The notes: a model not told the origin generated them from the sequence alone. A stretch of 64,000 nt of DNA from Desulfoplanes formicivorans (GCF_001748225.1 NZ_BDFE01000015.1:361437-425436), one strand, 5' to 3'; shown: positions 26,380 through 64,000, counted from the stretch's first letter. Numbers and translations: made by a program.

Positions 26380-26410
26380 ACCTTGCTGGTCGTACTCGGT
26401 TGCATTTTAT

Positions 26411-26460: not shown

Positions 26461-26485
26461 GGTATGTGTGTTCAGATGAAAGGAA

Positions 26486-28445: not shown

Positions 28446-28490
28446 GGTCAGGCAAATCGTTGAAACAAATTTGAACACAAGGAGGATCAA

Positions 28491-29075: not shown

Positions 29076-29239
29076 TCGGTTGGTATGCTCAAGGTTTTCA
29101 GCCCCGTTTGCCCCGGATCATGATCCGGAACAAACGGGGCTCGTCAGAAAAAAAGCATGTTCGTCCCATGTATGGTACGTGTCACGGTCGGGGAGGAGCA
29201 TGCTGCATGACTATCGTGTACTCTGTAGCTGCATGAGAA

Positions 29240-36451: not shown

Positions 36452-36807
36452 GGGGATTCCATAGGGTGGGAGGATTGGATGTTCTGTGTAACATTTTGTC
36501 TAACGTATTACATACCATACCTTTTTTGGGCATGCCAGCCCCATTTTCTCGGTATCTGTGGCTGTGAAGCAAGAATGATGTCTCTTTTTCACGGGGATCC
36601 CGCAGATGGAACAGGTTGGGACCACGTGGCCAGAACCATGCGTAATGTTTGAAGGCGAAAGTGGCCAGCCATCTCTGCTGTGATCATATCAATTTATTTT
36701 TATTGATAAATGGTTACGTTGCCGGTGTAAAACAAGTTACGAGTACTGTACCGTAGAACATCATGCATGTAAGGTCCAAAGTGTCGTATGACAGAACGGG
36801 AGTTGCC

Positions 36808-42570: not shown

Positions 42571-42767
42571 CGATCCCTCAAAGACCAATGGTCTGCAGGC
42601 GGAATGCATGAAAAGGAACCGAAATCGCATGAGGTGTGTAACCTGCACATATGCAGGTTACAAAAAAGTGGTCAGGAACGAAGCATGGTTCCTGCCGGGA
42701 CAAGGTACAGGCCGGTCCGGCTTTTCAGAATATCTGGACGTTTAGATGGATTCCCAAGAGGTTGTTC

Positions 42768-45700
42768 ATGACGAGATACGTTGCTGTTTTTTCCGGTATT
42801 GGAACCCAGTGGCCGGGGATGGGCCGCGAACTCATGGTTCAGGGGGGCGCATTTGCCGCAGGATTTCGTGAATTTGACCAGGCCTTTGCCCCCATGGCCG
42901 GCTGGTCTGTGGAACAGATGCTCTACACACAATCCGGTGACATCCGACCTGCCCATATGGGCCATCCCTGTGTACTGGCTGTGGAGTGCGGCCTGTTTCG
43001 TGCGTTGCAGGAGAGTGGTTTTGAGCCGGATATGATCATGGGGCACAGCGGGGGCGAAGTCACTGCGGCCTGGGCTGCAGGGGTGCTTTCGACAACCGAT
43101 GCGGCCAGGGTGGCTCTGGCGCACAGTCAGTTGCTGGTCCGGGTCAGCGGTCAAGGGCGGATGGCTTTTGTGGGACTGCCTGCTGACAATGTGGAGCGCA
43201 TGATTCAGCCGTATAACGATCGTGTGCAGATTGCGGCCATCAATGCCCCGTCGGGAACCGTGTGCAGTGGGGACCCGAAAGCGTTGCAGGCATTGGGGGA
43301 TGCCTGTCCTGCCCATGTCTTTTTCCGCATGCTTGCCGTGGATGTTCCCTTTCACAGTAAGGTCATTGAAGCACATCTAAAAGAGTTTGCCGAGTCTTTG
43401 GCCACGCTCACCCCGCAACCAGCCCGTATTCCCATCCTGTCCTCGCTGCACGGCAAAGTTGCCCGGCCCGGAGATTTTGATGCGGCCTATTGGTGTCGGC
43501 ACATTGGTGAACCGGTGCGTTTCGAGGCTGCCATGCGTTGTGCCCTGGATAGGGGCGCTGCCTGTTTTGTGGAAATCGCTCCCCATGCCGTGTTGCAGGA
43601 TTCCATGGCCGAGACCGCATCCGCCATGGGTCACAGGGTGGAAAGCACGGGAACCATGTGCCGGAATACGGACGCCAGCCAGACATTGCAGCAAGCCACG
43701 GACATCCTGAAGGGCTGGAAAGAGGCACCATCGGCATGTTCCGGTATCTCTGATGCCCATTTGGGACAGGCGGCAGACAAATCCCGGAGGCGGCGTCGCA
43801 GCGAGTTGAAAAAACTGATCCGCCAAGAGCTGAAACAGGTGCTGCCGGAGTGCGAGATGGGCGATGACGAGCCCTTCCGTACCCATGGTCTGACGTCATT
43901 GCTGGCAGTGCGTTTCTGTTCCGGCCTGGGCCAATCACTGGGACTTGCGCTGCCGGTTTCCACGGTGTTCAACCATCCCGACATCACCCGGTTGGCCGAT
44001 CATCTGTCATGTCTTGGTGATGACGTTGCAACCGGGTCCGGCGAGTCCGTCAGCTGTAAGCATCTGGAAGAACCGCTGGCCGTTGTGGGTGTGGGCTGCC
44101 GTCTGCCCGGCGGGATCAATTCCATGGATGAGTATTGGCGTTTCCTGGTTGACGGCAAGGATGCGGTTATTCCGGTGCCGCAGGATCGGTGGGATCGGGA
44201 GCGGTACTATGACCCGGATCGTAACGCTCCGGGCAAGATGTACACCTGTGAGGCCGCTTTTCTGACAGCTCCCAGTCCCCGTCTCCAGGATTTTGACGCA
44301 CATTTTTTCAATATATCCTCCCGTGAGGCGGCCCAGCTTGATCCGCAGCAGCGTCTGCTTCTTGAGGTAAGCTGGGAAGCTTTTGAGCACGCAGGTATCG
44401 ATCCCTTTGCCTGGCGCGGCAAGAATGTTGGCGTGTTTGTGGGTATGACCAACAACGAGTACAGCCACGCCCACCGTGAATCCTATGTGCGGGAACGCAT
44501 TGACGCCTATTCCCTCACCGGCACGACGCTGAGCGGAGCCTGTGGCAGAGTTTCCTATTATTACGGTTTTGAAGGACCCTGCTTTTCCGTTGATACGGCC
44601 TGTTCTTCGAGTATGGTTGCCCTGCATGCTGCCTGCCGGAGTCTGCGTCAGGGTGAATCCGACATGGCCCTGGTGGGGGGGGTGACCCTGATGCTCACGC
44701 CGGATCTGCACATTTGCTTCAGTAAACTCGGGGCTATCAGTCCGGACGGACGAAGCAAGGCCTTTGATGACAGCGCAGATGGTTATGGCCGGGGAGAGGG
44801 TGCCGTGGTCGTGCTTTTGAAGCGGTTGAGGGATGCCCAGAGGGACAAGGATCGTATTCTGGGACTGGTCCGGGGTACGGCCCTGAATCAGGATGGCAAG
44901 AGCAATGGTCTGACGTCCCCCAATGGTTTGTCACAGCAGAAGGTCATTGCCCAGGCGTTGCGTGATGCCGCCCTGCGGCCCGAAGATGTCAGCTATGTGG
45001 AGGCCCATGGTACGGGCACGGCTCTTGGCGATGCCATTGAGCTCGAGGCCCTTGCGGATGCCTATCGGCCCAGTCCGGGCACGCTGCTGCGCATAGGATC
45101 TGTCAAGGCCAATATCGGGCATCTGGAGCCGGTTTCCGCCCTTGCCTCCCTGGCCAAGCTCATGTTGTGCCTGGAGCATGGGGCTCTCCCGGCAAATATT
45201 CATATCAAGACTCCCAATACCCGCTTTGACTGGCAGGGACGGGGCGTGGAGGCACCGCGGACATTACAGCCCTGGGAGGGTGAACATCCGCGCCGTGCCG
45301 GGATGAGTTCTTTTGGTTTTTCCGGGGTCAATGGTCACGCCATTATCGAGGAATATGTGGAGCCTGCGGTTGAGGAATCCACACAGGAGCCATCGGCCTT
45401 TCTGCTCCTGCTTTCAGCCAAGACAGAGGAAGCCCTGCGGGATCTGGCCCAGGCAACCGCCCTTGAGGTACAGGATATGACGCCGCATCACCTGGCGGCC
45501 CTGTGCCGCAGTGCCGCGTGCCGGAGGCACCATTTTGCCTGGCGGGTGGCCGTTGTGGGCAGTACCCCCGGCGAGGTGGCGGAACAGTTGCGAACGGCCA
45601 TGCCTGTGCGGGCAGCAGCACAACCCGAGACAATGGGGTTGCTGTTTACCGGGCAGGGTTCGCAGTATCCGGACATGGGACGCTCCCTGTTTGCCATGTA

Positions 45701-48700
45701 TCCGGTCTTTCGCAAGGCACTGGAGGAATGTGACCTTCTTCTTCAAGCCCATGATTTTGATTTGCTGCAGGCGATCTATGGCGGCATGTCGGCAGAGGAG
45801 CTGGCTCGTACGGAGTATGCCCAGCCGGTTATAGCCTCGGTGTCGTATGCTCTCTGGCGTTTGTGGGAATCTTTTGGCCTGGGTTTTGATTATGTGGCCG
45901 GGCACAGCATTGGTGAATACCCGGCCGCTGTGGCCTCCGGGGTGATGCGCCTGGAAGACATGCTTGTTTTGGCACTTCATCGGGGACGGTGCATGGCCCA
46001 GGCTCCGTCAGGAGGTATGGCCGCGGTCTTTGCCTCCGAGGATGAGGTGGCCGGATTGCTGGCCGGGCACCCGCAGATCTGTATTGCAGCGATCAATGCT
46101 CCTGTAAGCCTGACGGTTTCCGGGCCCCAGGCCGCCCTGGCTGCCTTTCTCAAGGATCTGAAAGATCGCGGTGTGGCGTATCGGGAACTGCGTGTATCCC
46201 ATGCCTTTCATTCACCGGATATGGACAAAGCAGCCAAGGCCTTTGAAGGTCCGCTGCAGGAGGTGGAGCTGGCCCGGCCAACACGCATGGACATGATTTC
46301 CACGGTCAGCGGGCAGATGGCTTCCCTCGAACTGACACGTTGGACCTATTGGCGTGATCAGATTGTCGCGCCGGTTCGGTTTTTCAGCGCCGTGCAGACC
46401 ATGAGCGAGCAGTGTTCTCTGGCCGTTGAGGCCGGTCCATCCACGGCATTGTCCGGACTGGTCTGGCAATGTGGCCTCACGTTGCAGTGTTTCCCTACCT
46501 TAAGCCCCAAGCAGGACGGATTGAGGTCCCTGTTCGGGGCCATGGCCAGTCTGTATGGTGAGGGTGTGGTCCTGAACTGGGATGAAGTGTTTGCCTCGTT
46601 TCCTGACCAATATGTGCCCCTGCCCGGATATCCCTGGCAGCGTCAACAGCATTGGATGGATGTGCAGGTGGATCCGCCGTCGGGGTTTGTCCGGAGTGAC
46701 CACGTGCCGGGCCACCGTCTGGACAGCCCGGCGTTGGGGGATAGCGCTGTCTTTGTCATGGATTTTTCCGAGACCGGTCCCGGATTCGTGCAGGAACATG
46801 TCATTTTCGGCAAGGCCATCAGTCCTGCTGCCGGTCACATGGCCATGATCCTGGCCGCAGTGCGGGAATTGAGGGGCACGGAATGCTGTCAGCTGGGCAA
46901 CGTGGATTTTCTCAGCCCGCTGGTGGTGGAACCGGGGCAGACCCGGCACGTGCAGGTGATTATCGAGACCCCGCAGGCTTCCGAGAGCCGGTTTCGTCTT
47001 GTGAGCCGACAGGGGGAGGAAGACTGGCTGACCCATTGTACCGGCACGGTGATTTTCCAGCCGGGACCGGAATCCGTTCCCGTGCGCAAACCAGGGCAGT
47101 TGTTCGCGCATCGGGAAACCAAAACCGCCTTTTATGACCGTTTCCTGGGACAGGGATATGAAGTGGGGCCCGGTTTTCAGCGTATCGAAGATATTTCGGT
47201 CCGGGATGGCGAGTCCATGTGCCGGGTACAGGCCCGGCGTGGCGATCCCGGCGAGGCCGGGCATGTGATCTACCCCGGAGCTCTGGATGCCGTGCTGCAG
47301 ACCATCCTGCCGCCTTTTTTCCACGAACTGGCCGATACCATGATGACCGAGGAGGCCTTGCTCATCCCGCTGCATGTGGAACGGTTGAGCCTGTGGCGAC
47401 CGGTACCCGAGGCCTTGTGGTGCCATGCCCGGGCCAGACGGGGATCCGGAGATGCAACCCTGGAGGGCGGTACTCTTGCCATGGATGACAAGGGACAGGT
47501 GGTCATGGAGCTGTCCGGATTCGTGTTCCGCATGACCGATAGGGCCACCCTGTACCGCCAGATGCACAGTGATCCCCTGCAACAGGTTTATGTGCAGCAA
47601 TGGGATGACGCGCAGCTGCCAAAGGCCGGTTCCGGGCAGGTGTATGTGGCATCGCTGGGCCGAGCTGAAACAGGGGCTCGTCTGGCCGAGGTCCTTGGCG
47701 CCCATGTTCTGCCGACATCAGGCAGGGAATTGGCCCGGGCCCTGGCTGATGTGGATACTTCAGGCGGTCATCTGCTGCTGGTACATGGTCCTTGTTCCGA
47801 CGTGGATGATCTGGCCGCAGGGGAAATACGGGTCTGTCAGGATATGCTGGTTGCGTTGCAGCAGGCCGTATCCTTTGGATTGCGCGTGCATGTGATCACC
47901 AGCGGGGTGATGAAGGTGCTGGAAGACGATGAAGTGCAGCCATCCGGGGCAGGATTGTGGGGTGTTGGAGGCAGTTTCGCCCTGGAGCATCCGGATCTCT
48001 GGGGTGGTTGTGTGGACATGCCCGGTACGGCGTGGAGCGACGAGGACATGCAGCTCTGTGCCAGGCTGTGTCAGGCCGAATCAGTGCAGGATCACCGGGC
48101 TGTACGTCATGGTCGTGTATATGCCCAGTCATTGGTACACCTCAAGTCGGACCGTCAGGCAGATGCCGTCCCGTTGTCCGGAACGCATGTGATCAGTGGC
48201 GGATCCGGTTCCCTTGGGCTGCATCTGGCACGGTGGCTTGGGGACAAGGGCGCCGAGGCCGTGGCCCTGATGTCCCGTTCAGGAATCCGTTCGGAATCCG
48301 GGCGTCAGGCCCTGGAGGATCTGCGTCAAAAGGGGGTGCGTGTTTTTGATCTGCAGGTGGACGTGACCGATGTGCTGCAGGTTGAGGCGGCCTTGACCGG
48401 TTTGCGACAGGAGGCTCCCCCCCTGCGTGGAGTCTATCATGCGGCCGGTCTTCTGGATGACGGAGTGATCATGGAGATGACCCCAAAGCGTATGCACAAG
48501 GTCATGGAGCCCAAAATTACCGGAGCCGTTAATCTGCACCTGGCCACAAGGGATGATGAACTGCAGCATTTTGTTCTCTATTCCTCGGCCGGAACCCTGC
48601 TCGGAGCTCAGGGACAAAGCAACTATAATGCGGCCAATCTTTTTTTCAACGTGTTTGCCTGGTGGCGCCAGCAGCAGGGATTGGCGGGTAACAGTGTGTG

Positions 48701-49343
48701 CTGGGGGCCATGGGCCGAGGGAGGCATGGCCGTGGCAACCAAGCGCCGAGGGGCGCATCTGGAACGTCAGGGCATTGTTTCCCTGCAAGCTGACGATGCT
48801 CTGGCAGCATTTCAGGCCGCATCTCCCCTGGCACCGTGTTTTGGGGTCATGCATATGGACTGGAAACGTTTTGCACAGGCCCGGTCTGAATCCCTGCAAC
48901 AGGGTTCGAACGGCTATTTCGCGTCCCTGATATCCACCCAATGGTTGCACCAGGATGACATGCAAAACGTTGAGGCTGTATTGGGCGATGCGACCGATGC
49001 GGCGAGCCTGCTGGAAGGTTTGCGCCTTGTGGCCTGCCGGTTGATCGGGGTTAGCGATCCTGCCCATCTGGCCGTGGAGGTGCCCTTGCTGGAGCAGGGG
49101 TTTGATTCCCTCCTGGCCGTGGAATTCCGTAACATTATCGGTCGGGAGCTGGGTCGGACCATACCCGTATCCCTGATTTTTGAATATCCGACCCTGGAAA
49201 AGATAGCGGGATGGCTGAGGGGGAGCAACGGTTCGGAAACAGAGGAGCAGATACCCGTGGAAATCGCAAACGTGGACCATTTTGCCGACCGGGACCGGCA
49301 GGCCTTGCTGAACGACATTGACAGTTTGCTGGGGGAAGATTGA
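42768..49343 (+). CDS. Type I polyketide synthase: loading AT-ACP, then KS-AT-DH-KR-ACP
   Basis: Loading AT (GHSGGE), ACP-like (HGLTSLLAV), KS (DTACSSSMVALH...EAHGTGTALGD), AT (GHSIGE; HAFHS suggests a malonyl-specific AT), DH (HVIFGKAISP = HxxxGxxxxP), KR (GGSGSLGLHLARWL) and ACP (GFDSLLAVEF). Start taken at ATG 42768; the ORF track extends to 42651. Confidence 0.9.
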   Translation: MTRYVAVFSGIGTQWPGMGRELMVQGGAFAAGFREFDQAFAPMAGWSVEQMLYTQSGDIRPAHMGHPCVLAVECGLFRALQESGFEPDMIMGHSGGEVTAAWAAGVLSTTDAARVALAHSQLLVRVSGQGRMAFVGLPADNVERMIQPYNDRVQIAAINAPSGTVCSGDPKALQALGDACPAHVFFRMLAVDVPFHSKVIEAHLKEFAESLATLTPQPARIPILSSLHGKVARPGDFDAAYWCRHIGEPVRFEAAMRCALDRGAACFVEIAPHAVLQDSMAETASAMGHRVESTGTMCRNTDASQTLQQATDILKGWKEAPSACSGISDAHLGQAADKSRRRRRSELKKLIRQELKQVLPECEMGDDEPFRTHGLTSLLAVRFCSGLGQSLGLALPVSTVFNHPDITRLADHLSCLGDDVATGSGESVSCKHLEEPLAVVGVGCRLPGGINSMDEYWRFLVDGKDAVIPVPQDRWDRERYYDPDRNAPGKMYTCEAAFLTAPSPRLQDFDAHFFNISSREAAQLDPQQRLLLEVSWEAFEHAGIDPFAWRGKNVGVFVGMTNNEYSHAHRESYVRERIDAYSLTGTTLSGACGRVSYYYGFEGPCFSVDTACSSSMVALHAACRSLRQGESDMALVGGVTLMLTPDLHICFSKLGAISPDGRSKAFDDSADGYGRGEGAVVVLLKRLRDAQRDKDRILGLVRGTALNQDGKSNGLTSPNGLSQQKVIAQALRDAALRPEDVSYVEAHGTGTALGDAIELEALADAYRPSPGTLLRIGSVKANIGHLEPVSALASLAKLMLCLEHGALPANIHIKTPNTRFDWQGRGVEAPRTLQPWEGEHPRRAGMSSFGFSGVNGHAIIEEYVEPAVEESTQEPSAFLLLLSAKTEEALRDLAQATALEVQDMTPHHLAALCRSAACRRHHFAWRVAVVGSTPGEVAEQLRTAMPVRAAAQPETMGLLFTGQGSQYPDMGRSLFAMYPVFRKALEECDLLLQAHDFDLLQAIYGGMSAEELARTEYAQPVIASVSYALWRLWESFGLGFDYVAGHSIGEYPAAVASGVMRLEDMLVLALHRGRCMAQAPSGGMAAVFASEDEVAGLLAGHPQICIAAINAPVSLTVSGPQAALAAFLKDLKDRGVAYRELRVSHAFHSPDMDKAAKAFEGPLQEVELARPTRMDMISTVSGQMASLELTRWTYWRDQIVAPVRFFSAVQTMSEQCSLAVEAGPSTALSGLVWQCGLTLQCFPTLSPKQDGLRSLFGAMASLYGEGVVLNWDEVFASFPDQYVPLPGYPWQRQQHWMDVQVDPPSGFVRSDHVPGHRLDSPALGDSAVFVMDFSETGPGFVQEHVIFGKAISPAAGHMAMILAAVRELRGTECCQLGNVDFLSPLVVEPGQTRHVQVIIETPQASESRFRLVSRQGEEDWLTHCTGTVIFQPGPESVPVRKPGQLFAHRETKTAFYDRFLGQGYEVGPGFQRIEDISVRDGESMCRVQARRGDPGEAGHVIYPGALDAVLQTILPPFFHELADTMMTEEALLIPLHVERLSLWRPVPEALWCHARARRGSGDATLEGGTLAMDDKGQVVMELSGFVFRMTDRATLYRQMHSDPLQQVYVQQWDDAQLPKAGSGQVYVASLGRAETGARLAEVLGAHVLPTSGRELARALADVDTSGGHLLLVHGPCSDVDDLAAGEIRVCQDMLVALQQAVSFGLRVHVITSGVMKVLEDDEVQPSGAGLWGVGGSFALEHPDLWGGCVDMPGTAWSDEDMQLCARLCQAESVQDHRAVRHGRVYAQSLVHLKSDRQADAVPLSGTHVISGGSGSLGLHLARWLGDKGAEAVALMSRSGIRSESGRQALEDLRQKGVRVFDLQVDVTDVLQVEAALTGLRQEAPPLRGVYHAAGLLDDGVIMEMTPKRMHKVMEPKITGAVNLHLATRDDELQHFVLYSSAGTLLGAQGQSNYNAANLFFNVFAWWRQQQGLAGNSVCWGPWAEGGMAVATKRRGAHLERQGIVSLQADDALAAFQAASPLAPCFGVMHMDWKRFAQARSESLQQGSNGYFASLISTQWLHQDDMQNVEAVLGDATDAASLLEGLRLVACRLIGVSDPAHLAVEVPLLEQGFDSLLAVEFRNIIGRELGRTIPVSLIFEYPTLEKIAGWLRGSNGSETEEQIPVEIANVDHFADRDRQALLNDIDSLLGED

Positions 49344-53001: not shown

Positions 53002-53087
53002 ACAATGCAGGGACCCATCCGGAGGCTGCCTGGTTTTTGATCCATGTTGTCCTTTTGTCCAGCCGCGCCAGATACCCGGACAAACCT

Positions 53088-53789: not shown

Positions 53790-56700
53790 GCGGTTCTTCC
53801 CGGGGTGCAAAGAGCGATGATTTCATGAAGATATGTTTGCATCTTTTCAAGCAGATCTTCCAGATACCGGGGAGAGAACTCGGCAGGATGTGCATCCACG
53901 TTGAGTCTGAGCCGATGGTCCTGGACCAGACCGGTCACTGCCAGTTTGGCCTGTTGGGGAAAATCGTTGTCAACATCACTGGAAAATCCAAGTTCTTCCA
54001 GAGTGAACGGGCCGCTGGTGCTGCCTGAGACGTCGCCCAGATAGTTGAACAGGACGTCGGCTTCGTAGTCCTGCAATGCTTCAATTTCGGCTAGATACCG
54101 TAAGACCCCGAAGCCCAGCCCCTTGGACGGAACAGCACGGAGGGAACGGTGCACGGAGCGGATGGTGGCAGGGATATCCGTGGCCGCGCACAGCACTGTT
54201 GGATGCACCGTGGTGAACCAGCCCACAATGCCCCCAAGGGAAAGATTTTCAAACAATTCCTGGCGTCCGTGGCCTTCCAGATCCACCAGGAGTTTCCGGG
54301 TGCCGCTTTGTGATTTCACGGCCAGCAGCAAAGCCGTGAGCAGCAGATCATTGATATTGGTATCATAGGCCTTGTGGCATGGGCCCAAAAGAAGCCGGGT
54401 ATTTTTTTTGTCCAGAATCAGATCTCTGGTGATGAGTTCGCAACTGCGTCGTGTCTCAACGGTGCCCTGTACAGGTATCCCTGAGGGTCTGGACGCGAGC
54501 TGTTTTTTCCAGAAATCCCTTTGCTGCTGTACCTCCGGACTCTGTGCATGCTTGATCAGGCGTGCGGCCCATTGGGCAAAGGAACCATGCTGAGCCAGGG
54601 GGGCACTGGGAAGTTCCACGGGAAGATCGTGGTCCACACAGTGCAGGGCTGCAGCCAGATCGCCCAGGATGAGGTGCCAGGACACTCCGTCCACAACAAG
54701 GTGATGGATGATGAGGGCCAACCGGTCCGGTTCCTTGTCTTTCCGGCCTGGGACCAGAACAGCCCAGGCCAAAGGCCCCCTGGCCAGGTCCAGGTTGTGG
54801 GCAATGTCGGCAGCCACCTGTTGCAACTCGTCCGCAGTACAGGTTCGCAGACCAAACCTGTTGTGACCGCTGGTAAGGATATGTTGTTGCCGCTGACCCT
54901 TTTCCAGGGGATAGACAGCACGCAGCATGTCGTGGCGTCGGCTGAGTTCGGCAAGTGCTTTTTTGTATACGGTGGCCGGTCGGCAACGATCCGTGCGCAG
55001 AATCACGGATTGAAAAAACTGTGCGTGATTCATGTCCAGGGAAAAGAGCCACCGCTGGATCGGAGTGAGGGGAACGTTCTGGATGCTTGGTCGGGGAGCC
55101 GCTGCAATCTCCTCGATGATGGCCGCCAGGCTTCTTACATGTGGATCCTTGAGCATGGAAAAGTGGTTGCCCGGGCAGTAACGTTCCTCCATGCCGCCCA
55201 GGGCCAGATTTTCCCAGCCCAGGGGGCGGGTCTCAAAGGACTGGTAGGAGCCGTTCACCGGATCCTTGGGACGGATACATGTCATGGGTATGGGCAGGGG
55301 CTGAGGTTCATAATGGGCCCACGCCAGAAGCTGGGCCTGAAGAAAGGCATGCAGGCGCTTCATTGATGGCACGGATGGAGCACCATCTTCATAACCGGTC
55401 AGGGCTTCCAGTCCGACAGCAATGGCCTGTTCAGGCACTTCCTGAGGAATCTGGTCTCTGGGGACGGGGTTTCCAAGGTCATCGTCCAGCAGATGGTCTC
55501 GGGTGTTCAAGGAGATCACGCCGCGTACCGGGCAGTCGGCCTCGAGCAACTGGCGGGCAATTTCCCAGGCGGTCATGCCGGCCATGCACAGGCCCACCAA
55601 CAGGAAATCTCCCCTGGGAAACCGTTGGATCAGGCTCGGCACATAGCGTGCAGCCACCTTTTCCAGCTGCGTGTCCGGTTGCTGGCCATGATCAATGCCG
55701 AAGGGAGGGAGGACAAAAACAGGCCGTTCCTTGGGCAGGGCATTGATCAGATGGTGATAGCAGCGCACAGACCCACCGGTCGTATGGACCAGGACAAGGG
55801 GACATCCGCTGCCTTCGCGCACGGGTATGAGAAATGGCTGTTTCTCTTCCTCACCTTCCTGTAGGTCGCGTATACGACGGGCCAAGGTGCGTATGGTCAC
55901 GCCGTTCATGAGTTCGGAAATGGGTATACTGCAGTTCAGATTGGTTTCCACGTGGGCAATCAGGCGCATGGCCTTGAGGGAATCCCCGCCCATTTCAAAA
56001 AAATCGTCATCCAGGAAAACCGTGTCCATGCCCAGCACATCCAGCCAGATACGGGCCAGGGCCAACTCCAGGGCTGTTGATGGCGGTTCACCCTCGGTAT
56101 GCTGTGGCCGGACGAGTTCAGGCAGGGCTGCCTGGTCGATTTTTCCGTTGGTATTCAGGGGCAAGGCTTCCATGCGAATGAATAGGGCAGGGATCATATA
56201 TGCGGGCAGTTTGCGACGCAGCAGAGCCCGCAATGCGGTTTCGTCCCATTTTTCGGCCACAACATAGGCGCAGAGTACAACATCACCGTTGGCATCCGGT
56301 CGGGCCAGGACGGCTGCCGAACGGATCTCCGGCCGGGCCAGCAGAATCTGCTCGATTTCCGCCGGTTCGATACGGAAACCGCGGATACTGAGCTGATTGT
56401 CGATTCTTCCCAGAAATTCCATGGTGCCGTCGGGAAGACGACGGCAAAGGTCCCCGGTACGGTACATGCGGGCGTATTCCCCCTCCTTGTCCCTGGCAAA
56501 GGGGTTGGGGACGAAAGCATGGGTCGTCTGATCCGGCTGGTTGCGGTAGCCGCGGGCCAGGGCCTTTCCCGACAGATGCAGTTCTCCGGGCAGGCCGTCG
56601 GGCTGGAGATGACCATGGCGATCCAGAATGAGACATTGGGTGCCGGCCACGAATCGGCCGATGGGGATGGGTTTGTTTTCCTCCTGCACCAGATGGTGCG

Positions 56701-59700
56701 TGGCCATGATGGTTGCTTCACTGGGCCCGTATTCGTTGTACAGTTTGTAGGGCTGGGGGCGAAAGGTGCGCAGGGCGTCTCCTCCGGTGGCCAGCAGTCG
56801 CAGGGATCGTGGAGGAGCCAATGTCTGGAACTGCTCGGCCAGCACGGTGGGAATGTTGGCCAGGGTGATCCCATGGGTATCAAAGTGGGTATGCATGCGC
56901 TGCAGGCTGGTACGATGGGGGTCGTCAAGCACATCTATGGTTGCGCCTGCCGCAAGGATCGGGAAAATGCCCCAGGCCGCCGCATCAAAGGCAAAACTGA
57001 AGACAAGACCGGCACGATCCTCGGGAGTGACCTCATAGGCCTGGATATGCCAGGTGCAGAAATTGGCCAGACTCCGGTGTTCGATCATGACCCCCTTGGG
57101 TTGGCCTGTGGTGCCCGAAGTGTAGACCACATAGGCAAGACTTTCCGGATGTGGCGCGGGCAGACTCTTGGATGTGGGCGTGTATGATGTGCGGACATCA
57201 AGACGCGGTCCGTCAAAGGCGGTTGCCAGTTCCGCCATGGAGGGGTCACTGATGAGAACACAGGGAGCAGCGTCCGAAAGGATATGGGTCATTCGGTCTT
57301 GGGGATATGCCGGATCCAGAGTCACATAGGCACTACCTGATTTGAGGATGGCCAGCAGGGCCACCATGTACTCTGCCGAGCGGGGCAGGAGTATGGCGAT
57401 GGTGCGTTCCGGACCGGCACCCAGTTCGCGCAGTTTGTGAGCCAGAGCATCGCTTCGTGTGTCCAGTTCCTCATAGGTCAGGCTGTTGTCCCCACAGACC
57501 ACAGCAATGTTTTGGCCGTGACGGGCCACGCTGCTGCGGAACAGATCCACCACTGTCGTATCTTTGGAAGAAACCGCCATGGGGGAGATTGTTGCTGGAA
57601 CACAAAGGCTCAGCGCTGATGGAATGATGTCCGGATTGTCTGCCATCTGGTGTAGTACGTGCAGAAAATGATTGCCCAGATCCTGCACCAGCCATGTGTC
57701 CAGGGCCGTGGCGTTAAATTGCAGACGTCCGTTGAGTTCCTGTCCCTGTTCAAAGACCAGAGCCAGATCGTAGTTGGTCTGGTTGAATCCCCCGGATGTG
57801 GTTATGCCAAGGGCCTGGTCAGGATGTGATGACGGCAGATTTTCAAAGACAAACAGGTGGTTGATAAGGCCATTGCCCAGAGGAGTAAGCTGCTGAATAT
57901 GGGCCAGGGGAATATGGGCATGGGGTTCCATGCGAAGCATGTCTGCCTGTACCCGGGTCAATACCTGGCGCAGGGGCTGGTTGTCCGGGAATGTAATGCG
58001 CATGGGTACGGTGTTGACAAACAATCCGACCATGTTTTCCACGTGGGGCAGATCAATATTGCGTCCCGAGAGCACTGTGCCGAAAACCACGTCGTCATTA
58101 TTGACCGCTCTACTGAGAACCAGGGCCCAGGCGGTCTGCAGCACGGTGTTTATGGTGACCTGGCAGTCCCCTGCCAAGGCGGTCAGTTTGCGGGACAGGT
58201 CAGACCCGCAATGAAGGGGAATGGTTTGGCCGTCATAGGGACCCTGTGCCTTGATGCGGTGTCCGGGCAGATCCGTGGATTCGGCCCCCTGCAGCCATTG
58301 GCGCCAGAAGGCTTGTGCAGCAGCGTGATCCTGTGAAGCCAGCCAGTGTATGTAGGTACTGAAGGGCGCGGTGGGAGCAGGAGGCTCGGCGCTGAATAAT
58401 TCCGAGGCCAGGATACCCATGCTCCAGCCGTCGAGGATACTATGCTGGAAAGAAACCAGCAGGGCATGGTGATTGGGTCCCAGCACACAGAGAATCAGGC
58501 GAAAAAGCGGTCCCTCTTCCAGGTCAAGGCCGTGCTCGCGCACCGAACGCTGCAGCTCTTCCATGCGCTCGAGCTGCTTATCTTCTGGCAGGTCCTGCAG
58601 ATCTTCTTCTTCAAGGACAACACCTGCATCAGATACTTCAATGAGCCAGGGGCTGCTCAGCCCTTTCCACGCAAAAAGTGTGCGCAACATGGCATGGCGC
58701 TGTACACACCCAGCCAACCGAGTTCGTAATGCCTCGATATCCAGGGGGCCGCGCAGGTCCAGATTGCTCTGCTCTATGTAGGTTGCTGATTCGGGCTCGC
58801 GGGTGTGATGGTAGAGCAGACCTTCCTGCATGGGGGTCAATGGATGCACTGCCAGCAGGCGTTTCCCAAAACGTTGACCAAGAATGTGCAGATCCCGCTC
58901 GGGTGGTTGCGGTGTGGGACTGACAGGGACTGGTGGCTCTGTTGTGCGGGATTTCTGCAGTTTGGCGGCCACCTGGCACAGTCTTGGATGATTGAACAGA
59001 AGTTGCGATGTCAGCTGATATCCCCGGGCCCGCAGGCGGGAGACCACCATCATGGCTTTGATGGAATCGCCGCCCAGGGCAAAAAAGTTGTCCTCCCTGC
59101 CGGGAGAGGCAACATCGAGTACCTCCCTCCAAATTGCAGCCACCGTCTTTTCCTGTTCCGTGCGTGGCTGCGATGGGGCTGGGGCTGCTTCTTCCTGTGG
59201 TGCAGGAAGTGCCGCATGGTCGATTTTGCCGTTGGCTGTGAGTGGCAGATGCTGCAGGGAGCAGATGCGTCCCGGGACCATCCAGCGCGGCAGCCGTGTT
59301 GTCAGCCAATCAAGCAGAAACTCCGTATCCTCCATCCTCGGCGTGACATACGCTGTCAGCAGGTTTTTTTCTCCATCTTCATGCAGTACGGCCACAGCGT
59401 TGTCCACGCTGTCATGGGCCAGGAGTGCGGATTCGATTTCTCCCAGCTCCAGACGTTGTCCCCGCAGTTTGACCTGTCCGTCCATGCGGCCGATGAAGTC
59501 GAGGTTGCCGTCGGGCATGAGGCGGCAGATGTCCCCGGTGCGGTACATGCGGGCGTGGGGTCCTTCTTGGGCAAAGGGATTGGCCACAAAGGCCCGGGCT
59601 GTCTGCTCTGGTCGGTTGAGATAGCCTCTGGCGATCTGGATACCGGACAGATGCAGCTCTCCGGGAGCGCCAAAGGGCTGCAACTGGCCATGTCGGCCAA

Positions 59701-62700
59701 GGATATGACATCGGGTATTGGCAATGGGGGTGCCGATGGGGGGGCTGGTGCGTGACGTGGTCACGGGCCAGCTCGTGGCACACACCGTGAATTCCGTTGG
59801 GCCGTAGCAGTTGCGCAGCTGGTAGGAACGTGGAGTCAGGGGGCCTGGTTTGTCGCCTGCCAGGGTGACCACACGCAGGTCGGGAAACTCATGGCCGTCC
59901 AGAACCTGATGGCCCACCTGGGGGGGCAGAAAGGACACTGAAATGCCGTGTGCATGAAAATAGTCGCGCAGGGCTTCGATATCCAGCCGCAGGGGTTCGG
60001 GAATGATATGCAGGGTCGCTCCGGCGGTCAGGGCCGGAAAGATTTCATACACAGAAGCGTCAAATGTCCATGGCGCATAGGTCGTGCACACATCGGTTGC
60101 GGTGAGGGGAAAATCCGTATGCTGCCAGCGGCACAGGTTGACCAGGCCGGCATGCTCCAGAAGTACCCCTTTGGGCTGACCCGTGGAGCCCGAAGTATAG
60201 ATGACATAGGCCAGATGCTGTGGCCGGGGTGCCGAAGGAACAGGGGACGCATGTTCCTGCAGGTTGGCAAGGTCCACTCGCGTTACTGAGGCCAGGGTGA
60301 GCAGATGGCGCGTTGCCTGAGTGTCCACAAGGATGGAAAGCCCTGCGTCCTGTGCAATAAATTCCAGACGTTCTGCAGGCCAGGAAGGATCAAGGGGAAG
60401 ATAGGCTGCGCCGGCTTTCATGATGCCCAGAGCCGCTATGACGAAATCTTCATTGCGCGGCATGAGGATCCCCACCATGGTCTCGGTGGTGACCCCCTGG
60501 GCGGCCAGACGGGCGGCCAGAGCATCGGTACGAGCATCAAGTTCGCCATAGGAACAGGTACCCTCTGCGCACACAAGGGCTGTCTTCCCGGGGTTCTGTC
60601 GGGCAACGGCGCGGAACAGATCAACCACGGTACTGTCTGTCTCGAAGGTTCGATCCGTGCGATTGCAGTGGACCAGAAGACGACGTTTTTCTGCCGCAGT
60701 GAGCATGGGCAGGGTGGAAATGGCCGCATCGGGCGTCTGGACGGCCCCTTCCAGCAGAGTCAGGTAGTGTTCGCGAAGGGCCTCCACTCGCCACGTTTCA
60801 AAGCTGGCCGTGTCGTAGTGAAAGGTACAGCTCAGACGGTCTGCATCAGTCCATTCAACGGCAAATTCCACGTCAGTATACCCGGAACTGTGCAGAGGGG
60901 TGATGGTCAATGCATCGGGTGTTCTGACCGGGGGCTGGTTTTCGAGAACAAAGAGCTGATGCATGGCCTCGCCGGTAAGTTCGTTGAGCTGGGCCATGGG
61001 ACAATGTGCATGGGCCTCGGCCTGCAGATTCCAGTCCTGTATGGAGGAGGCGAAATCTATAAAGGGTTGTTGCGGTGTATAGACCGCCCGGACCGGTACT
61101 GTTTGTACGCAGAGTCCCACAAGCTCTTCCACGTTGGGGATGGTGGCCGGACGGCCCGAGATGACGTTGCCGAAAAGGACGTCGTCTTGGTCTGCATGAC
61201 GGGCAAGGACAATGGCCCAGGCCGCCTGGAGCAGCGTGTTCAGGGTCAGACCGTGCTTGGATGCCAGGGAACGCAGACCCTGCTCCACCTGGCGGGTGAG
61301 CTGGAAGGGAAGTTGTGCCGGGCCCGTCTCGGTTGTCTGAAGCTGATTGTCCACACTTCGGCGCGGAAGCAGAGCCGGTGATGACAACTCCCTCAATGTT
61401 TCCTGCCACCATTTCAGGTTTTCAAGGGGATCCTGACGGGTCAGTTCACGGATGTGTGCCAGGAAGGACACCGGCGGTTTTTCCGGTGTTTCCGGGGCAA
61501 AGAGTTCCCCAAGCACCTGGCCGAGGCTCCAGCCGTCCATAACAATATGATGCCAGGACAAAAGCATTCGGAATCGTTGGGATTCGAGACGGAAAAGCAG
61601 GATGCGGACCAGAGGATCCCTGTCCAGCCTAGGCACGGGCATGTCTGCCTGGGCTTTCCGGATGGCTGCTTCCTGGGCGCTTTGAGGCAGGTTGCGCAGA
61701 TCCTGGTAGCGAAAGAACGATGCTTTGTTGTCCAGTACCACCTGCCAGGGCTGGTGTTCATCATGAACAAAAATGGTGCGCAGGGCGTCATGGCGTCGGG
61801 TGATCTCCTGCCAGCGGTTTTGCAGAGCTGTCGGATCCAGCTTCCCTTGTATTTCTGCCCAGTTGTCAATGATATAAGCCCCGGGATCGCGTTGGGCCGC
61901 AGCAAGCATGGCCGTCTGCATGGGGGTAAGACGGCATATGGTGGTGATGTTGGGCACACGCTTTGACAGATGTTCGCGGGTGGCTGTCTGTACGGTCGGA
62001 TCATGCCATGTGGTGTTCAGGTCTGCCTTGTCTGCAGCCGCGGGATGCATGCTTTTGGCCACTGTGGCCAGATCGGTGCGTGCATAAAGTTCTTTGAGCT
62101 CCAAGTGGTAGCCCCGGCTCCATAGGCGTGAGGCAACCATCAGGGCTTTGATGGAATCACCGCCAAGTTGAAAGAAGTCGTCGTCAAGTCCTACTCGTTC
62201 CAGGTCCAGCACCTCGGCCAGTACGTCGCAGAGATTTTTCTGGGCCTCATTTTCAGGCGCTTTGAATACTGCCTGAAGCATCTCGGGCGCGGGCAGGGCT
62301 TTGGTGTTGATCTTGCCGCTGACGGTCAAAGGCAGGGAATCGAGAAAGATGACATGTTCCGGAACCATGTAGGGAGGGAGTTGTTCCCTTGCAAAGGAGG
62401 CTATGGTCTCCTGATCAAGTTCGGCCTTATTTTTGGGCAGAACATAGGCACACAATTGTCCCTGATGGACCCGGAGGACGCATTGCTCCACAAGGGGATG
62501 CGTCTGGAGGGTTGATTCGATTTCCCCCGGTTCGATGCGGTGCCCCCGGATCTTGAGCTGCGCATCAATACGGCCCAAGAATTCGATGCTGCCGTCGGGT
62601 TGCCAGCAGCAAAGGTCTCCGGTGCGGTACATCCTTTGGGTGTCGGGGCCTGTGGCATAGGGGTTGGGGACAAACACGGTTTCGGTCAGATCGGGCCGGT

Positions 62701-64000
62701 TCAGATACCCGCGGGCCACCTGAATACCTGTGATGCACAATTCTCCGGGGATACCAACGGGCAGGAGATGGTCGTGCTCATCCAGAATGAACATGTCTGT
62801 ATTGTGCACGGGTTTGCCAATGGAGCGCGGATTGGCCTGACCGGCATCCCGACAGCTGGTGGAGGTGATGGTGCATTCTGTGGGGCCGTAGTTGTTCAAC
62901 AGGCTGAAGGGAGGATTATCCCGGGGCGTGAAAACGTCACCACCGGCGGTCAGGGTTTTCAGACTATCAACAGCAGATCCTTCCTTGAGAAAGAGGGTTG
63001 CCATGTGTGGGGGCATCCACGTGTCGGTGATACCGTTATGACGCAGATAACGGGTCAGGGCACGGAGATCATGCCGCAGGTCCTCGTCAAGTATATACAG
63101 TGTGGCCCCGGCCGTGAGGCCGGGGAAGATTTCCCAGATGGAGACGTCAAAGGCGTGTGCGGCAAAATGGGTCAGGCGTGAATCGGGATTCAGGGCATAA
63201 TGACGTGCGGTCCACAGGGTCTGGTTGGTCAGGCTGCGGTGTTCAACCGCAACCCCTTTGGGCAGTCCGGTAGTGCCTGAGGTATAGATGACATAGGCCA
63301 GATCCGTGATTCGGGGCGCAGGAAGGGGGGCTGCTTTGCTGGTAAACAACTGTGCCTTGTTCACATCAAAGCAGGGCAGTTGGGTATCCAGGGAGGAGAT
63401 CAGCTCGGTTTCGCTGATGAGCGCCACGGCACCGGAGTCTTCAAGCTGAAACTGCAGGCGTTGTCGGGGGGCGTCCACGGCCAGGGGCAGAAAAGCCCCT
63501 CCAGCCTTGAGCACTGCCAGCAGGGACACGGGAAAGGCGAGTCCTCTGTGGAGAAGCACGGCCACCACCTGTTCCGGGCCGGCGCCTGCATCACGCAGGC
63601 GTGTTGCCAGGGCATCGCTGTGCTGATCCAGCTCTTTATAGGTCAGGTGCTTGTGGCCAAAGACGAGCGCGGTTGCCTGGGGTTGGCTGGCAGCCTTCTG
63701 GCGGAATAATTCAACCACCGTGACCGGAGGATAGCTCACCTCGGGTGCCCGGAAATGGTTCAGGATCATGTCCTGCATGCTTGGGGAAACCAGACAGACG
63801 TCCCCCAACAGCATGTCCGGGGTGCGGCTGATGTTTTCGAGCACGGTCACGTAGGCATGGGCCAGAGATCGGATACGCCACTCGTCAAAACAGGCCCCGT
63901 TGTAAACCAGCATGCCTGCCAGGCGGTCCTGAGGTTCCCAGACCACGGCAAAATCGAAGTTGGTCTGACTGAATTCCTCGATCACCTCGCCCTGGATTCC
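53786..64000 (-). CDS. Non-ribosomal peptide synthetase, 5'-partial (runs off the window): ...C(partial)-A-T-C-A-T-C-A-T-TE(Cys)-C(terminal)
   Basis: Three adenylation domains (YTSGTTGLPKG / YTSGSTGQPKG / YTSGTTGQPKG; NYGPTE; GELCITG/GELHLSG; RTGD; KIRGHRIE), three T domains (LGGDSIKA x2, MGGDSLKA), condensation domains with HHxxxDG-type motifs (HHIVMDGWS, QHSILDGWS, IHHLVVDGVS), a TE-like alpha/beta-hydrolase domain with GLCMAG in place of GxSxG, and a final C domain. The first residues in the window lie inside a C domain, so the gene continues beyond 64000. Confidence 0.95.
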   Translation of the reverse strand, partial: GIQGEVIEEFSQTNFDFAVVWEPQDRLAGMLVYNGACFDEWRIRSLAHAYVTVLENISRTPDMLLGDVCLVSPSMQDMILNHFRAPEVSYPPVTVVELFRQKAASQPQATALVFGHKHLTYKELDQHSDALATRLRDAGAGPEQVVAVLLHRGLAFPVSLLAVLKAGGAFLPLAVDAPRQRLQFQLEDSGAVALISETELISSLDTQLPCFDVNKAQLFTSKAAPLPAPRITDLAYVIYTSGTTGLPKGVAVEHRSLTNQTLWTARHYALNPDSRLTHFAAHAFDVSIWEIFPGLTAGATLYILDEDLRHDLRALTRYLRHNGITDTWMPPHMATLFLKEGSAVDSLKTLTAGGDVFTPRDNPPFSLLNNYGPTECTITSTSCRDAGQANPRSIGKPVHNTDMFILDEHDHLLPVGIPGELCITGIQVARGYLNRPDLTETVFVPNPYATGPDTQRMYRTGDLCCWQPDGSIEFLGRIDAQLKIRGHRIEPGEIESTLQTHPLVEQCVLRVHQGQLCAYVLPKNKAELDQETIASFAREQLPPYMVPEHVIFLDSLPLTVSGKINTKALPAPEMLQAVFKAPENEAQKNLCDVLAEVLDLERVGLDDDFFQLGGDSIKALMVASRLWSRGYHLELKELYARTDLATVAKSMHPAAADKADLNTTWHDPTVQTATREHLSKRVPNITTICRLTPMQTAMLAAAQRDPGAYIIDNWAEIQGKLDPTALQNRWQEITRRHDALRTIFVHDEHQPWQVVLDNKASFFRYQDLRNLPQSAQEAAIRKAQADMPVPRLDRDPLVRILLFRLESQRFRMLLSWHHIVMDGWSLGQVLGELFAPETPEKPPVSFLAHIRELTRQDPLENLKWWQETLRELSSPALLPRRSVDNQLQTTETGPAQLPFQLTRQVEQGLRSLASKHGLTLNTLLQAAWAIVLARHADQDDVLFGNVISGRPATIPNVEELVGLCVQTVPVRAVYTPQQPFIDFASSIQDWNLQAEAHAHCPMAQLNELTGEAMHQLFVLENQPPVRTPDALTITPLHSSGYTDVEFAVEWTDADRLSCTFHYDTASFETWRVEALREHYLTLLEGAVQTPDAAISTLPMLTAAEKRRLLVHCNRTDRTFETDSTVVDLFRAVARQNPGKTALVCAEGTCSYGELDARTDALAARLAAQGVTTETMVGILMPRNEDFVIAALGIMKAGAAYLPLDPSWPAERLEFIAQDAGLSILVDTQATRHLLTLASVTRVDLANLQEHASPVPSAPRPQHLAYVIYTSGSTGQPKGVLLEHAGLVNLCRWQHTDFPLTATDVCTTYAPWTFDASVYEIFPALTAGATLHIIPEPLRLDIEALRDYFHAHGISVSFLPPQVGHQVLDGHEFPDLRVVTLAGDKPGPLTPRSYQLRNCYGPTEFTVCATSWPVTTSRTSPPIGTPIANTRCHILGRHGQLQPFGAPGELHLSGIQIARGYLNRPEQTARAFVANPFAQEGPHARMYRTGDICRLMPDGNLDFIGRMDGQVKLRGQRLELGEIESALLAHDSVDNAVAVLHEDGEKNLLTAYVTPRMEDTEFLLDWLTTRLPRWMVPGRICSLQHLPLTANGKIDHAALPAPQEEAAPAPSQPRTEQEKTVAAIWREVLDVASPGREDNFFALGGDSIKAMMVVSRLRARGYQLTSQLLFNHPRLCQVAAKLQKSRTTEPPVPVSPTPQPPERDLHILGQRFGKRLLAVHPLTPMQEGLLYHHTREPESATYIEQSNLDLRGPLDIEALRTRLAGCVQRHAMLRTLFAWKGLSSPWLIEVSDAGVVLEEEDLQDLPEDKQLERMEELQRSVREHGLDLEEGPLFRLILCVLGPNHHALLVSFQHSILDGWSMGILASELFSAEPPAPTAPFSTYIHWLASQDHAAAQAFWRQWLQGAESTDLPGHRIKAQGPYDGQTIPLHCGSDLSRKLTALAGDCQVTINTVLQTAWALVLSRAVNNDDVVFGTVLSGRNIDLPHVENMVGLFVNTVPMRITFPDNQPLRQVLTRVQADMLRMEPHAHIPLAHIQQLTPLGNGLINHLFVFENLPSSHPDQALGITTSGGFNQTNYDLALVFEQGQELNGRLQFNATALDTWLVQDLGNHFLHVLHQMADNPDIIPSALSLCVPATISPMAVSSKDTTVVDLFRSSVARHGQNIAVVCGDNSLTYEELDTRSDALAHKLRELGAGPERTIAILLPRSAEYMVALLAILKSGSAYVTLDPAYPQDRMTHILSDAAPCVLISDPSMAELATAFDGPRLDVRTSYTPTSKSLPAPHPESLAYVVYTSGTTGQPKGVMIEHRSLANFCTWHIQAYEVTPEDRAGLVFSFAFDAAAWGIFPILAAGATIDVLDDPHRTSLQRMHTHFDTHGITLANIPTVLAEQFQTLAPPRSLRLLATGGDALRTFRPQPYKLYNEYGPSEATIMATHHLVQEENKPIPIGRFVAGTQCLILDRHGHLQPDGLPGELHLSGKALARGYRNQPDQTTHAFVPNPFARDKEGEYARMYRTGDLCRRLPDGTMEFLGRIDNQLSIRGFRIEPAEIEQILLARPEIRSAAVLARPDANGDVVLCAYVVAEKWDETALRALLRRKLPAYMIPALFIRMEALPLNTNGKIDQAALPELVRPQHTEGEPPSTALELALARIWLDVLGMDTVFLDDDFFEMGGDSLKAMRLIAHVETNLNCSIPISELMNGVTIRTLARRIRDLQEGEEEKQPFLIPVREGSGCPLVLVHTTGGSVRCYHHLINALPKERPVFVLPPFGIDHGQQPDTQLEKVAARYVPSLIQRFPRGDFLLVGLCMAGMTAWEIARQLLEADCPVRGVISLNTRDHLLDDDLGNPVPRDQIPQEVPEQAIAVGLEALTGYEDGAPSVPSMKRLHAFLQAQLLAWAHYEPQPLPIPMTCIRPKDPVNGSYQSFETRPLGWENLALGGMEERYCPGNHFSMLKDPHVRSLAAIIEEIAAAPRPSIQNVPLTPIQRWLFSLDMNHAQFFQSVILRTDRCRPATVYKKALAELSRRHDMLRAVYPLEKGQRQQHILTSGHNRFGLRTCTADELQQVAADIAHNLDLARGPLAWAVLVPGRKDKEPDRLALIIHHLVVDGVSWHLILGDLAAALHCVDHDLPVELPSAPLAQHGSFAQWAARLIKHAQSPEVQQQRDFWKKQLASRPSGIPVQGTVETRRSCELITRDLILDKKNTRLLLGPCHKAYDTNINDLLLTALLLAVKSQSGTRKLLVDLEGHGRQELFENLSLGGIVGWFTTVHPTVLCAATDIPATIRSVHRSLRAVPSKGLGFGVLRYLAEIEALQDYEADVLFNYLGDVSGSTSGPFTLEELGFSSDVDNDFPQQAKLAVTGLVQDHRLRLNVDAHPAEFSPRYLEDLLEKMQTYLHEIIALCTPGRTA

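Follow-up and report, generated by a model that had tools for sequence, protein, structure and literature searches.

A predicted hybrid polyketide synthase/nonribosomal peptide synthetase assembly line with a split extension module and a thioesterase-epimerization terminus in Desulfoplanes formicivorans

Introduction

What does a hybrid polyketide synthase (PKS)/nonribosomal peptide synthetase (NRPS) cluster make in a sulfate reducer, and is it still able to make it? We address this question for 64,000 nucleotides of Desulfoplanes formicivorans DNA (GCF_001748225.1, NZ_BDFE01000015.1:361437-425436). This whole stretch is called the window, and all positions are counted from its first letter. 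A literature search on the PKS/NRPS chemistry of sulfate reducers yielded no relevant work, and characterised products of strict anaerobic sulfate reducers are almost absent from the papers searched. We favour the explanation, with a probability of roughly 0.72, that the window carries the core of a hybrid cis-AT PKS/NRPS assembly line which is orphan and apparently functional, with a mechanism as proposed below. The best predicted product would be a (2-enoyl-derived) 3-amino-acyl tetrapeptide, probably D-rich, that is freed as a macrolactam or as a linear acid. The cluster resides in a cultured type strain (Pf12B) and belongs to a conserved family, and its chemistry and ecological role are thus directly testable.

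Results and Discussion

Organization of the core genes

The core consists of two converging gene groups. PKS1 (42768-49343), PKS2 (49343-52252; the open reading frame, ORF, also runs from 49340) and a type II thioesterase, TEII (52249-53001), are encoded on the plus strand, while the minus strand carries an Sfp-type phosphopantetheinyl transferase (PPTase; 53088-53789, ORF to 53810) and the 3' part of the NRPS (53786-64000). The sequence-only reading of the window had described a hybrid type I PKS/NRPS cluster equipped with an Sfp-type PPTase and a type II TE of its own, and all genes that it named were found where it had placed them, with very strong Pfam support. The convergent layout agrees with the ORF list and the Pfam matches, and the predicted loading AT-ACP in front of KS-AT-DH-KR-ACP is borne out by two AT and two PP-binding stretches in PKS1. 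The cluster is also incomplete in the window as had been stated, since the NRPS runs off the edge at 64000. Some statements need amendment. ATGA start/stop overlaps were said to occur throughout; PKS2 and TEII overlap in this way (52249-52252), but PKS1 and PKS2 join as TGATG, where TGA shares only 1 nt with the ATG at 49343. The NRPS, described as tri-modular and longer than 3,400 aa, indeed shows 3,404 codons and three A-T pairs in the window, but its orthologues have four modules, about 5,400 aa and an ACP-aminotransferase start.

The PPTase (233-240 aa) matches the ACPS model PF01648 with 4e-15 and 56 bits (cut-off 25). Its nearest NCBIfam models are AusB and HetI, both under their equivalog cut-offs. 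Translation of the PPTase likely begins with the ATG at 53789, in an ATGA overlap with the stop of the NRPS (53789-53786). TEII (250 aa) matches PF00975 with 106 bits and 4e-30 and carries GHSMGG.

Members of the family were found in metagenome-assembled genomes (MAGs) of Desulfovibrionales/Desulfovibrionaceae, and the pair of PKS genes occurs in other phyla as well. Loci that were found via PKS2 homologues (L162, L164) show the order of the window, with PKS1-PKS2-TEII on one strand and PPTase-NRPS on the other.

Predicted loading and first extension by PKS1

According to Pfam, sequence motifs and the start shared by the orthologue set, PKS1 has the order AT_L-ACP_L-KS-AT-DH-KR-ACP, where the first two domains form the loading part. 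The full ORF (42651-49343) gives matches to Acyl_transf_1 (2.5e-114, two stretches), PP-binding (two stretches), ketoacyl-synt (1e-90), PS-DH and KR. Its first 39 codons overlap the remnant of another gene, and the start of PKS1 is most likely Met40 (nt 42768), where the orthologues start. The approximate domain positions are 42786-43694 for AT_L, near 43896 for Ser416 of ACP_L, 44070-45206 for KS, 45636-46521 for the extender AT, 46719-47546 for DH, 48180-48719 for KR and 49020-49217 for the second ACP.

AT_L carries GHSGGE and VPFH, and a His replaces the carboxylate-binding Arg, a pattern that is kept in six homologues. The loss of this Arg speaks for a starter unit that is not malonyl but monocarboxylic or special in some other way. 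The extender AT, on the other hand, has GHSIGE, the carboxylate-binding Arg and HAFH, and is therefore assigned to the malonyl type. The KS has a complete Cys-His-His set (DTACSSS, HGTGT, NIGH), the DH shows HxxxGxxxxP, GYxYGPxF and DxxxQ, and the KR combines an LDD motif (B-type) with the Ser/Tyr/Asn residues. Both ACPs keep the phosphopantetheine serine, and FDSL is the ACP motif noted in PKS1.

A probable split module between PKS2 and the NRPS

In PKS2, Pfam finds a KS (49436-50572) and an AT (51035-51859) and no ACP. Its KS is complete in Cys-His-His (ESACST, HGTGT, NIAH), and its AT has GHSIGE together with LAFHS in the window and in the closest relative, or HAFHC in other relatives. As PKS2 is a KS-AT only, this extension module does not have its own ACP on the same polypeptide and is regarded as a split module. 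The C-terminal helix of PKS2 is conserved and probably forms a docking element; the split between AT and ACP across convergent operons makes the locus a useful case for docking studies.

The partner is suggested by the relatives. Two Desulfovibrionaceae MAG loci, L001 and L027, contain orthologous NRPSs (63% identity, 5,400 aa, and 58% identity, 5,717 aa) that start with PP-binding, a class-III aminotransferase and Condensation, followed by A-T-C-A-T and so on. The NRPSs called in L162 and L164 (68% identity; 5,423 and 5,431 aa) again start with PP-binding/Aminotran_3 and then Condensation. While L001 and L027 support the NRPS architecture alone, L162 and L164 also support the convergent gene order. 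Every relative that shows the NRPS 5' end (51-68% identical) has this ACP-aminotransferase-C start. Because PKS2 has no ACP and the orthologous NRPSs begin in this way, PKS2 very probably acylates the ACP on the NRPS. In mycosubtilin MycA and microcystin McyE, a 3-keto thioester is transaminated to a 3-amino thioester. A metagenome scan with the N-terminal NRPS fragment returned nothing above 42% identity.

The gene just upstream of the orthologous NRPS, in a region that corresponds to positions beyond 64000, codes for an autotransporter (170-3847 in L001, 45-2807 in L027). The L001 passenger contains a beta-lactamase/S12-peptidase-fold domain (PF00144). One might speculate that the autotransporter is a surface peptidase which acts on a product containing D-residues.

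NRPS modules and predicted stereochemistry

The NRPS part in the window spans 10.2 kb and 3,404 codons without a stop, and its 5' end lies beyond the window. Pfam matches and motifs reveal three A-T pairs together with two complete C domains and a partial one. Given the four modules of the orthologues, we assign modules 2-4 to the window. On the minus strand, the domains lie approximately at 63764-64000 (C2, partial), 62312-63706 (A2), 62060-62233 (T2), 60674-61939 (C3), 59225-60616 (A3), 58964-59146 (T3), 57626-58846 (C4), 56141-57532 (A4), 55871-56059 (T4), 55109-55801 (TE) and 53804-55081 (E).

Stachelhaus codes, which the sequence-only reading had proposed to extract for the three A domains, are DVWWTGNITK, DAYFTACVCK and DAWNAGEIMK for modules 2-4, read at positions of a GrsA reference that was validated only by its giving DAWTIAAICK at the canonical positions. 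L001 has the same three codes, and DAWYLGSITK in its module 1.

Among structures in the PDB, C3 and C4 are closest to the C domains of TycB1, SrfA-C, McyB and PvdL, which follow E domains (1e-45 to 1e-66), and the LCL domains score 1e-18 to 1e-23. C2 of L001 resembles C3 and C4 in this respect and hence falls on the D-donor side, whereas its C1 resembles LCL domains. None of modules 1-3 contains an E domain. The placement of C2-C4 in the D-donor/dual E/C clade without upstream E domains suggests a D-rich peptide, and a dual E/C function of C2-C4 would be a reasonable inference.

The His motif of C4 (near 58450, minus strand, NRPS residue about 1852) reads QHSILDG in the window and in L163, i.e., the first His is exchanged for Gln. 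The other relatives have HHxxxDG at this place; the second, catalytic His is kept in the window.

The thioesterase-epimerization terminus

The NRPS ends in A-T-TE-E, with a TE domain after the third T domain of the window, followed by an E domain. This feature had been missed by the sequence-only reading. The order T-TE-E is present in the window and in eight family members, in place of the canonical T-E-TE. Other, unrelated NRPS fragments from the same search (P0125, P0126, P0214, P0215) have the usual T-E-TE with Ser TEs. In the search with the T-TE-E tail, all hits listed were shorter than 1,350 aa and none was a full-length NRPS; a literature search for the T-TE-E notation found no relevant work.

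The C-terminal domain (53804-55081, minus strand) bears PIQRW, HHLVVDGVSW, EGHGRQE, GWFT and FNYLG. In the PDB, its matches to the E domains of PvdL, TycB, bacitracin synthase 3, TycA and GrsA range from 1e-44 to 1e-57, and those to C domains are 1e-12 or weaker. It scores 72 bits against TIGR01720 (cut-off 74.2), a model that the internal C domains do not match. We thus classify the last Condensation match of the NRPS as an epimerization domain. That the terminal domain could be an ester-forming C domain was considered as well, and is ruled out by the E-domain motifs and the PDB matches. If C2-C4 are dual E/C domains, the trailing E domain would serve the last residue.

The embedded TE (55109-55801, minus strand; PF00975) displays GLCMAG, SLNT, RPKDPV and GNHF. 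It thus has a Cys nucleophile, an Asn (in SLNT) where most NRPS TEs have the catalytic Asp, an Asp in RPxDPV and a His in GNHF, rather than a Ser nucleophile with an Asp after beta6 (position I). The Cys and the Asn are conserved in homologues, and all four features hold in six aligned NRPS loci, where L027 shows variants of the elbow (AFCLAG) and of the Asp motif (RPLDAV). As far as the features are visible in the database fragments P0121-P0123, they agree. An AlphaFold model of the TE (pLDDT 77, pTM 0.82) places Cys90 after beta5, Asn117 after beta6, Asp199 after beta7 and His232 after beta8. With this model, Foldseek gives a probability of 1.0 to the TEs of AB3403, Vlm2, Pks13 and NocB; AB3403 is the best match, as it also is by sequence (E 4e-15).

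For NRPS TE domains of characterised structure, the combination of a Cys nucleophile and an acid after beta7 was reported only for ObiF1 and SulM (PMC11298585). The embedded TE, with its Cys, the Asn at position I and the conserved Asp after the predicted beta7 (position II), could share this arrangement, and it might accordingly be a strained-ring former that produces a beta-lactone or beta-lactam at the C-terminal residue once the trailing E domain has epimerised it. We consider this quite improbable. ObiF1 and SulM appear neither among the phmmer hits nor among the top 50 Foldseek hits of the TE, whose nearest neighbour in sequence and fold is the TE of AB3403; AB3403 itself has the position-II Asp without using it, and the module-4 code DAWNAGEIMK has no substrate assignment. 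Release by the Cys-TE as a macrolactam or a linear acid is preferred instead.

A wider proposal is put forward only tentatively, and we would not bet on it. T-TE(Cys, Asn-I/Asp-II)-E together with three D-donor-type C domains lacking E domains upstream could constitute a new off-loading logic, in which every alpha-residue is epimerised, the last one by the E domain behind the TE, and an all-D, beta-amino-acid-capped (cyclo)peptide is freed via a thioester acyl-enzyme. It would then be the signature of a family of biosynthetic gene clusters (BGCs) across anaerobic Desulfovibrionales and other uncultured lineages. Apart from this, the T-TE(Cys)-E order with its Cys/Asn/Asp/His TE represents a natural experiment on how carrier domains service both release and epimerization domains.

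Proposed biosynthetic route

For the favoured assembly line, the following route is proposed. The Sfp-type PPTase would prime the carrier domains, and the type II TE would clear mis-primed carriers. AT_L-ACP_L of PKS1 is expected to load a monocarboxylic (non-malonyl) starter, which KS-AT(malonyl)-KR(B-type)-DH-ACP would convert to a 2-enoyl thioester; here the domains are seen and the chemistry is deduced from them. PKS2 would then extend the chain once more onto the N-terminal ACP of the NRPS, where the embedded class-III aminotransferase, as judged from four orthologous loci, would turn the 3-keto into a 3-amino group. Four C-A-T modules, of which modules 2-4 lie in the window, would add four amino acids, with C1 of the L-donor type and C2-C4 of the D-donor/dual E/C clade. 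The final residue would be epimerised by its own E domain, such that the peptide is probably D-rich. Finally, the Cys-TE would free the chain. Ring closure to a macrolactam through the free beta-amine, following the iturin logic, is the most plausible way, and hydrolysis is the alternative. The conserved ABC exporter and the MFS (major facilitator superfamily) protein would export the product.

Several points weigh against this route. The ACP-aminotransferase start and module 1 lie beyond the window and are derived from the relatives only. The codes of modules 2-4 match nothing found in the literature, and the A-domain substrates therefore stay without assignment. C2-C4 are far nearer to DCL than to LCL structures, a comparison that cannot tell dual E/C from plain DCL domains. 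In the TE, an Asn occupies the canonical acid position, and TE activity is assumed. The last point concerns the precursor supply: a cassette that the relatives possess is reduced to a remnant, and the pathway may make a different product or be impaired.

A remnant of a precursor cassette

In L161, L162, L164 and L165, genes for an ACP, an acyl-CoA dehydrogenase (ACAD) and an FkbH-like protein lie directly upstream of PKS1. A 3-hydroxyacyl-CoA dehydrogenase (3HCDH) gene precedes this set in L162, L164 and L165, while the L161 locus begins at the ACP. The last gene of the cassette is annotated as FkbH-like or HAD-IIIC in the source entries. In the window, only the C-terminus of such a protein is left, with about 50 codons at 42593-42754 on the plus strand (tblastn with residues 288-338 of the L162 FkbH, 51% identity, E 5e-10). 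It begins 23 nt after the stop of a resistance-nodulation-division (RND) pump gene and ends just before the start of PKS1. Beyond this remnant, tblastn of the window found no cassette gene and hence no intact FkbH-dependent pathway set. Because only the remnant is left and the 120 best homologues include no FkbH of D. formicivorans, a result that also counts against the proposed route, we conclude from the sequences that the 3HCDH-ACP-ACAD-FkbH cassette was deleted at this site and that the remnant is its relic. This points to a lineage-specific loss of a glycerate-derived precursor cassette which the relatives keep, and documents a recent remodelling of precursor supply inside one BGC family.

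The loss could mean that the cluster as a whole is a decaying relic, in which an essential precursor supply was removed (possibly when the RND operon was inserted or took the place of the cassette) and the megasynthases persist in silence. The FkbH remnant directly after the RND stop, the intact cassettes of L161, L162, L164 and L165, the missing FkbH homologue and the changed first His of C4 (QH) are in line with this idea. We nevertheless deem it unlikely. The core reading frames extend over about 19.7 kb without a stop, every catalytic motif checked is intact, including the second, catalytic His of C4, and the core genes are not disrupted or pseudogenised, just as the sequence-only reading had noted, although the accessory precursor cassette is a remnant. 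Moreover, dN/dS against L163 (83% identical) is 0.17-0.27 for the core genes, a range that excludes PKS1; the core genes are under purifying selection. A locus that has the PKS pair without the cassette (L166) further indicates that the PKS pair can do without it.

L166 (positions 3470-12901) belongs to a Lentisphaerae MAG (MHBQ01000005.1) and holds PKS1 and a PKS2 that is again a KS-AT without ACP. No NRPS, PPTase or FkbH cassette is found within 10 kb of this pair, which seems to be a mobile unit employed in other contexts.

Accessory genes, export and cluster limits

Five plus-strand genes upstream of the core share synteny with L161 and L165, and in part with L001. They code for a periplasmic substrate-binding protein (SBP, PF04392; 27261-28445; tblastn matches in L161, L165 and L001 with 34-43% identity), an ABC exporter (29240-30988; ABC_tran) with syntenic homologues in L161 and L165, a conserved hypothetical protein of 158 aa without Pfam hit and with homologues in the same two loci (30985-31461), an SPFH/Band7 protein (PF01145; 31413-32540), likewise syntenic in L161 and L165, and an MFS fusion of 813 aa (33172-35613). 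In the latter, MFS_1 covers residues 421-745, the N-terminal half is without assignment, and the L165 homologue aligns over 22-775. We regard these five genes, on the strength of their synteny, as conserved cluster members. This sets the left border near 27.2 kb, and the cluster is best explained as extending from there to roughly 6 kb past the window end.

After the MFS gene, L161 (21819-22946) and L165 (21363-22496) carry a gene of the PLP-dependent Ala_racemase_N family. No counterpart was detected in the window by tblastn.

Between the MFS fusion and PKS1 lie a formyltransferase-like gene (35582-36451, minus strand; Formyl_trans_N 2.9e-11) and, on the plus strand and identified by Pfam, an operon of an outer-membrane factor (OMF, 36763-38256), a membrane fusion protein (MFP, 38253-39440) and the RND pump (39445-42570). 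These genes sit where the relatives have the FkbH cassette. One possible reading takes them as working pathway parts, with the pump in outer-membrane export and the formyltransferase in N-formylation of the beta-amine or of a side chain. They adjoin PKS1, the pump gene is on the same strand, and the 197 nt from the RND stop to the PKS1 start make co-transcription possible; Gram-negative peptide clusters also often contain RND or MacAB-type pumps. We are doubtful about this reading. The RND-MFP-OMF operon, the formyltransferase-like gene and a DUF697 gene have no tblastn counterpart in the parts of the relatives' clusters that were covered, where the FkbH cassette holds the position. The formyltransferase-like gene is a weak match (68 bits against PRK06988, cut-off 316) on the opposite strand, and neither F-domain logic nor an N-hydroxylase is present. 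Its cluster membership is hence not supported by the sequence comparison.

For the sequence-only reading this leads to a mixed outcome. The OMF-MFP-RND operon, the MFS fusion, the formyltransferase-like gene and the ABC exporter are all present. Of the self-contained export apparatus that they were thought to form, the ABC exporter and the MFS fusion are supported by synteny in relatives, and the pump and the formyltransferase gene are not. The exporter at 29.2 kb, called SyrD-like, does resemble the cyclic-peptide export type (SyrD/PvdE-like), but its TIGR01194 score of 280.2 bits falls just under the cut-off of 286.2. A siderophore as the exported product was considered and rejected, as no hydroxamate, catechol or TonB receptor genes were seen.

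Genomic context

The guess that the DNA comes from a sulfate reducer proved right, as an NCBI entry named type I polyketide synthase [Desulfoplanes formicivorans] (P0001) matches PKS2 from end to end with 100% identity. The housekeeping genes of the context (thrS, infC, pheS, pheT, amtB, a PF04008 gene and Fe-S proteins) are all there. The genome paper of D. formicivorans, which reports 3.0 Mb, 49.8% GC and 26 contigs, makes no mention of the cluster. The GC content is 47-51% over the SBP/ABC/Band7 genes (26000-32000), near the genome mean of 49.8%; for the region of the RND pump and the PKS/NRPS core (40000-64000) it is 58-62%. This contrast could reflect amino-acid composition or a foreign origin.

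Promoter and terminator scans at the TEII/PPTase convergence and upstream of the RND operon gave nothing beyond shuffled expectation, and tRNA and Rfam scans of the window found nothing close to the cluster. A tRNA-Val(GAC) at 153-227 (plus strand), directly upstream of thrS, is the sole RNA gene that they detected. Remote from the cluster, genes for a histidine kinase (10505-12052) and a sigma-54 activator (12091-13500) are followed by an ORF at 13527-17390 (plus strand). Its product of 1,287 aa has pentapeptide repeats at aa 434-501 and a class-I adenylate cyclase of the CyaA type at aa 662-1212.

Comparison with known systems

The general kind of system is already known, and the locus does not conflict with established assembly-line logic; its enzymology is of familiar types and no major paradigm is changed. 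Three features set it apart from the systems compared below: AT and ACP are split over convergent operons, the terminus is a conserved T-TE(Cys; Asn/Asp)-E, and the FkbH cassette has been lost in this lineage.

The closest parallel for the junction is MycA of the mycosubtilin/iturin type (AL-ACP-KS-ACP-AMT-C-A-T, where AMT is the aminotransferase). Common to both are the order ACP-AMT-C, seen here in the orthologues, in which a KS-made beta-keto thioester is transaminated and passed to a C domain, and a TE-terminated NRPS that permits ring closure via the beta-amine. However, AT_L-ACP_L with a full reducing PKS module takes the place of the fatty acyl-AMP ligase for loading, the KS comes with an AT, two proteins encoded on opposite strands share the module, and the end is T-TE(Cys)-E. 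With four amino-acid modules (in the orthologues) instead of seven, the locus falls outside the iturin family. The McyE-type module of microcystin and nodularin (KS-AT-ACP-AMT-C-A-T-C) likewise follows a cis-AT chain with DH/KR by KS-AT, ACP-AMT and NRPS modules, and the C domain of McyB is the closest one to C3 in the PDB. Here, in contrast, there are no methyltransferase domains, only two extensions, a break between AT and ACP, and another release architecture.

Concerning release, the TE of AB3403, a C-A-T-TE NRPS of Acinetobacter baumannii, is the best match in sequence and fold and shares the Cys in a GxCxG-like nucleophile elbow. It differs in that its position I is Asp (IDTR) where the window has Asn (LNTR), and in that no E domain follows it. 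The TEs of ObiF1 (obafluorin) and SulM (sulfazecin) have in common with the model presented here the Cys nucleophile and the candidate acid after beta7 (PMC11298585), but no specific nearness in sequence or fold was detected, the module context is another one, and there is no evidence of a beta-hydroxy or beta-amino C-terminal residue. Canonical C-A-T-E-TE terminal modules possess the same domain set, with an E domain that has all signature motifs, and differ from T-TE-E in the order. Finally, the FkbH/FkbI/FkbJ/FkbK-type (ZmaN/E/D/G-type) cassettes for hydroxymalonyl-/methoxymalonyl-ACP correspond to the 3HCDH, ACP, ACAD and FkbH-like set in front of PKS1 in the relatives; in contrast to them, no O-methyltransferase is seen in the relatives, and the window keeps the last 50 or so FkbH codons only.

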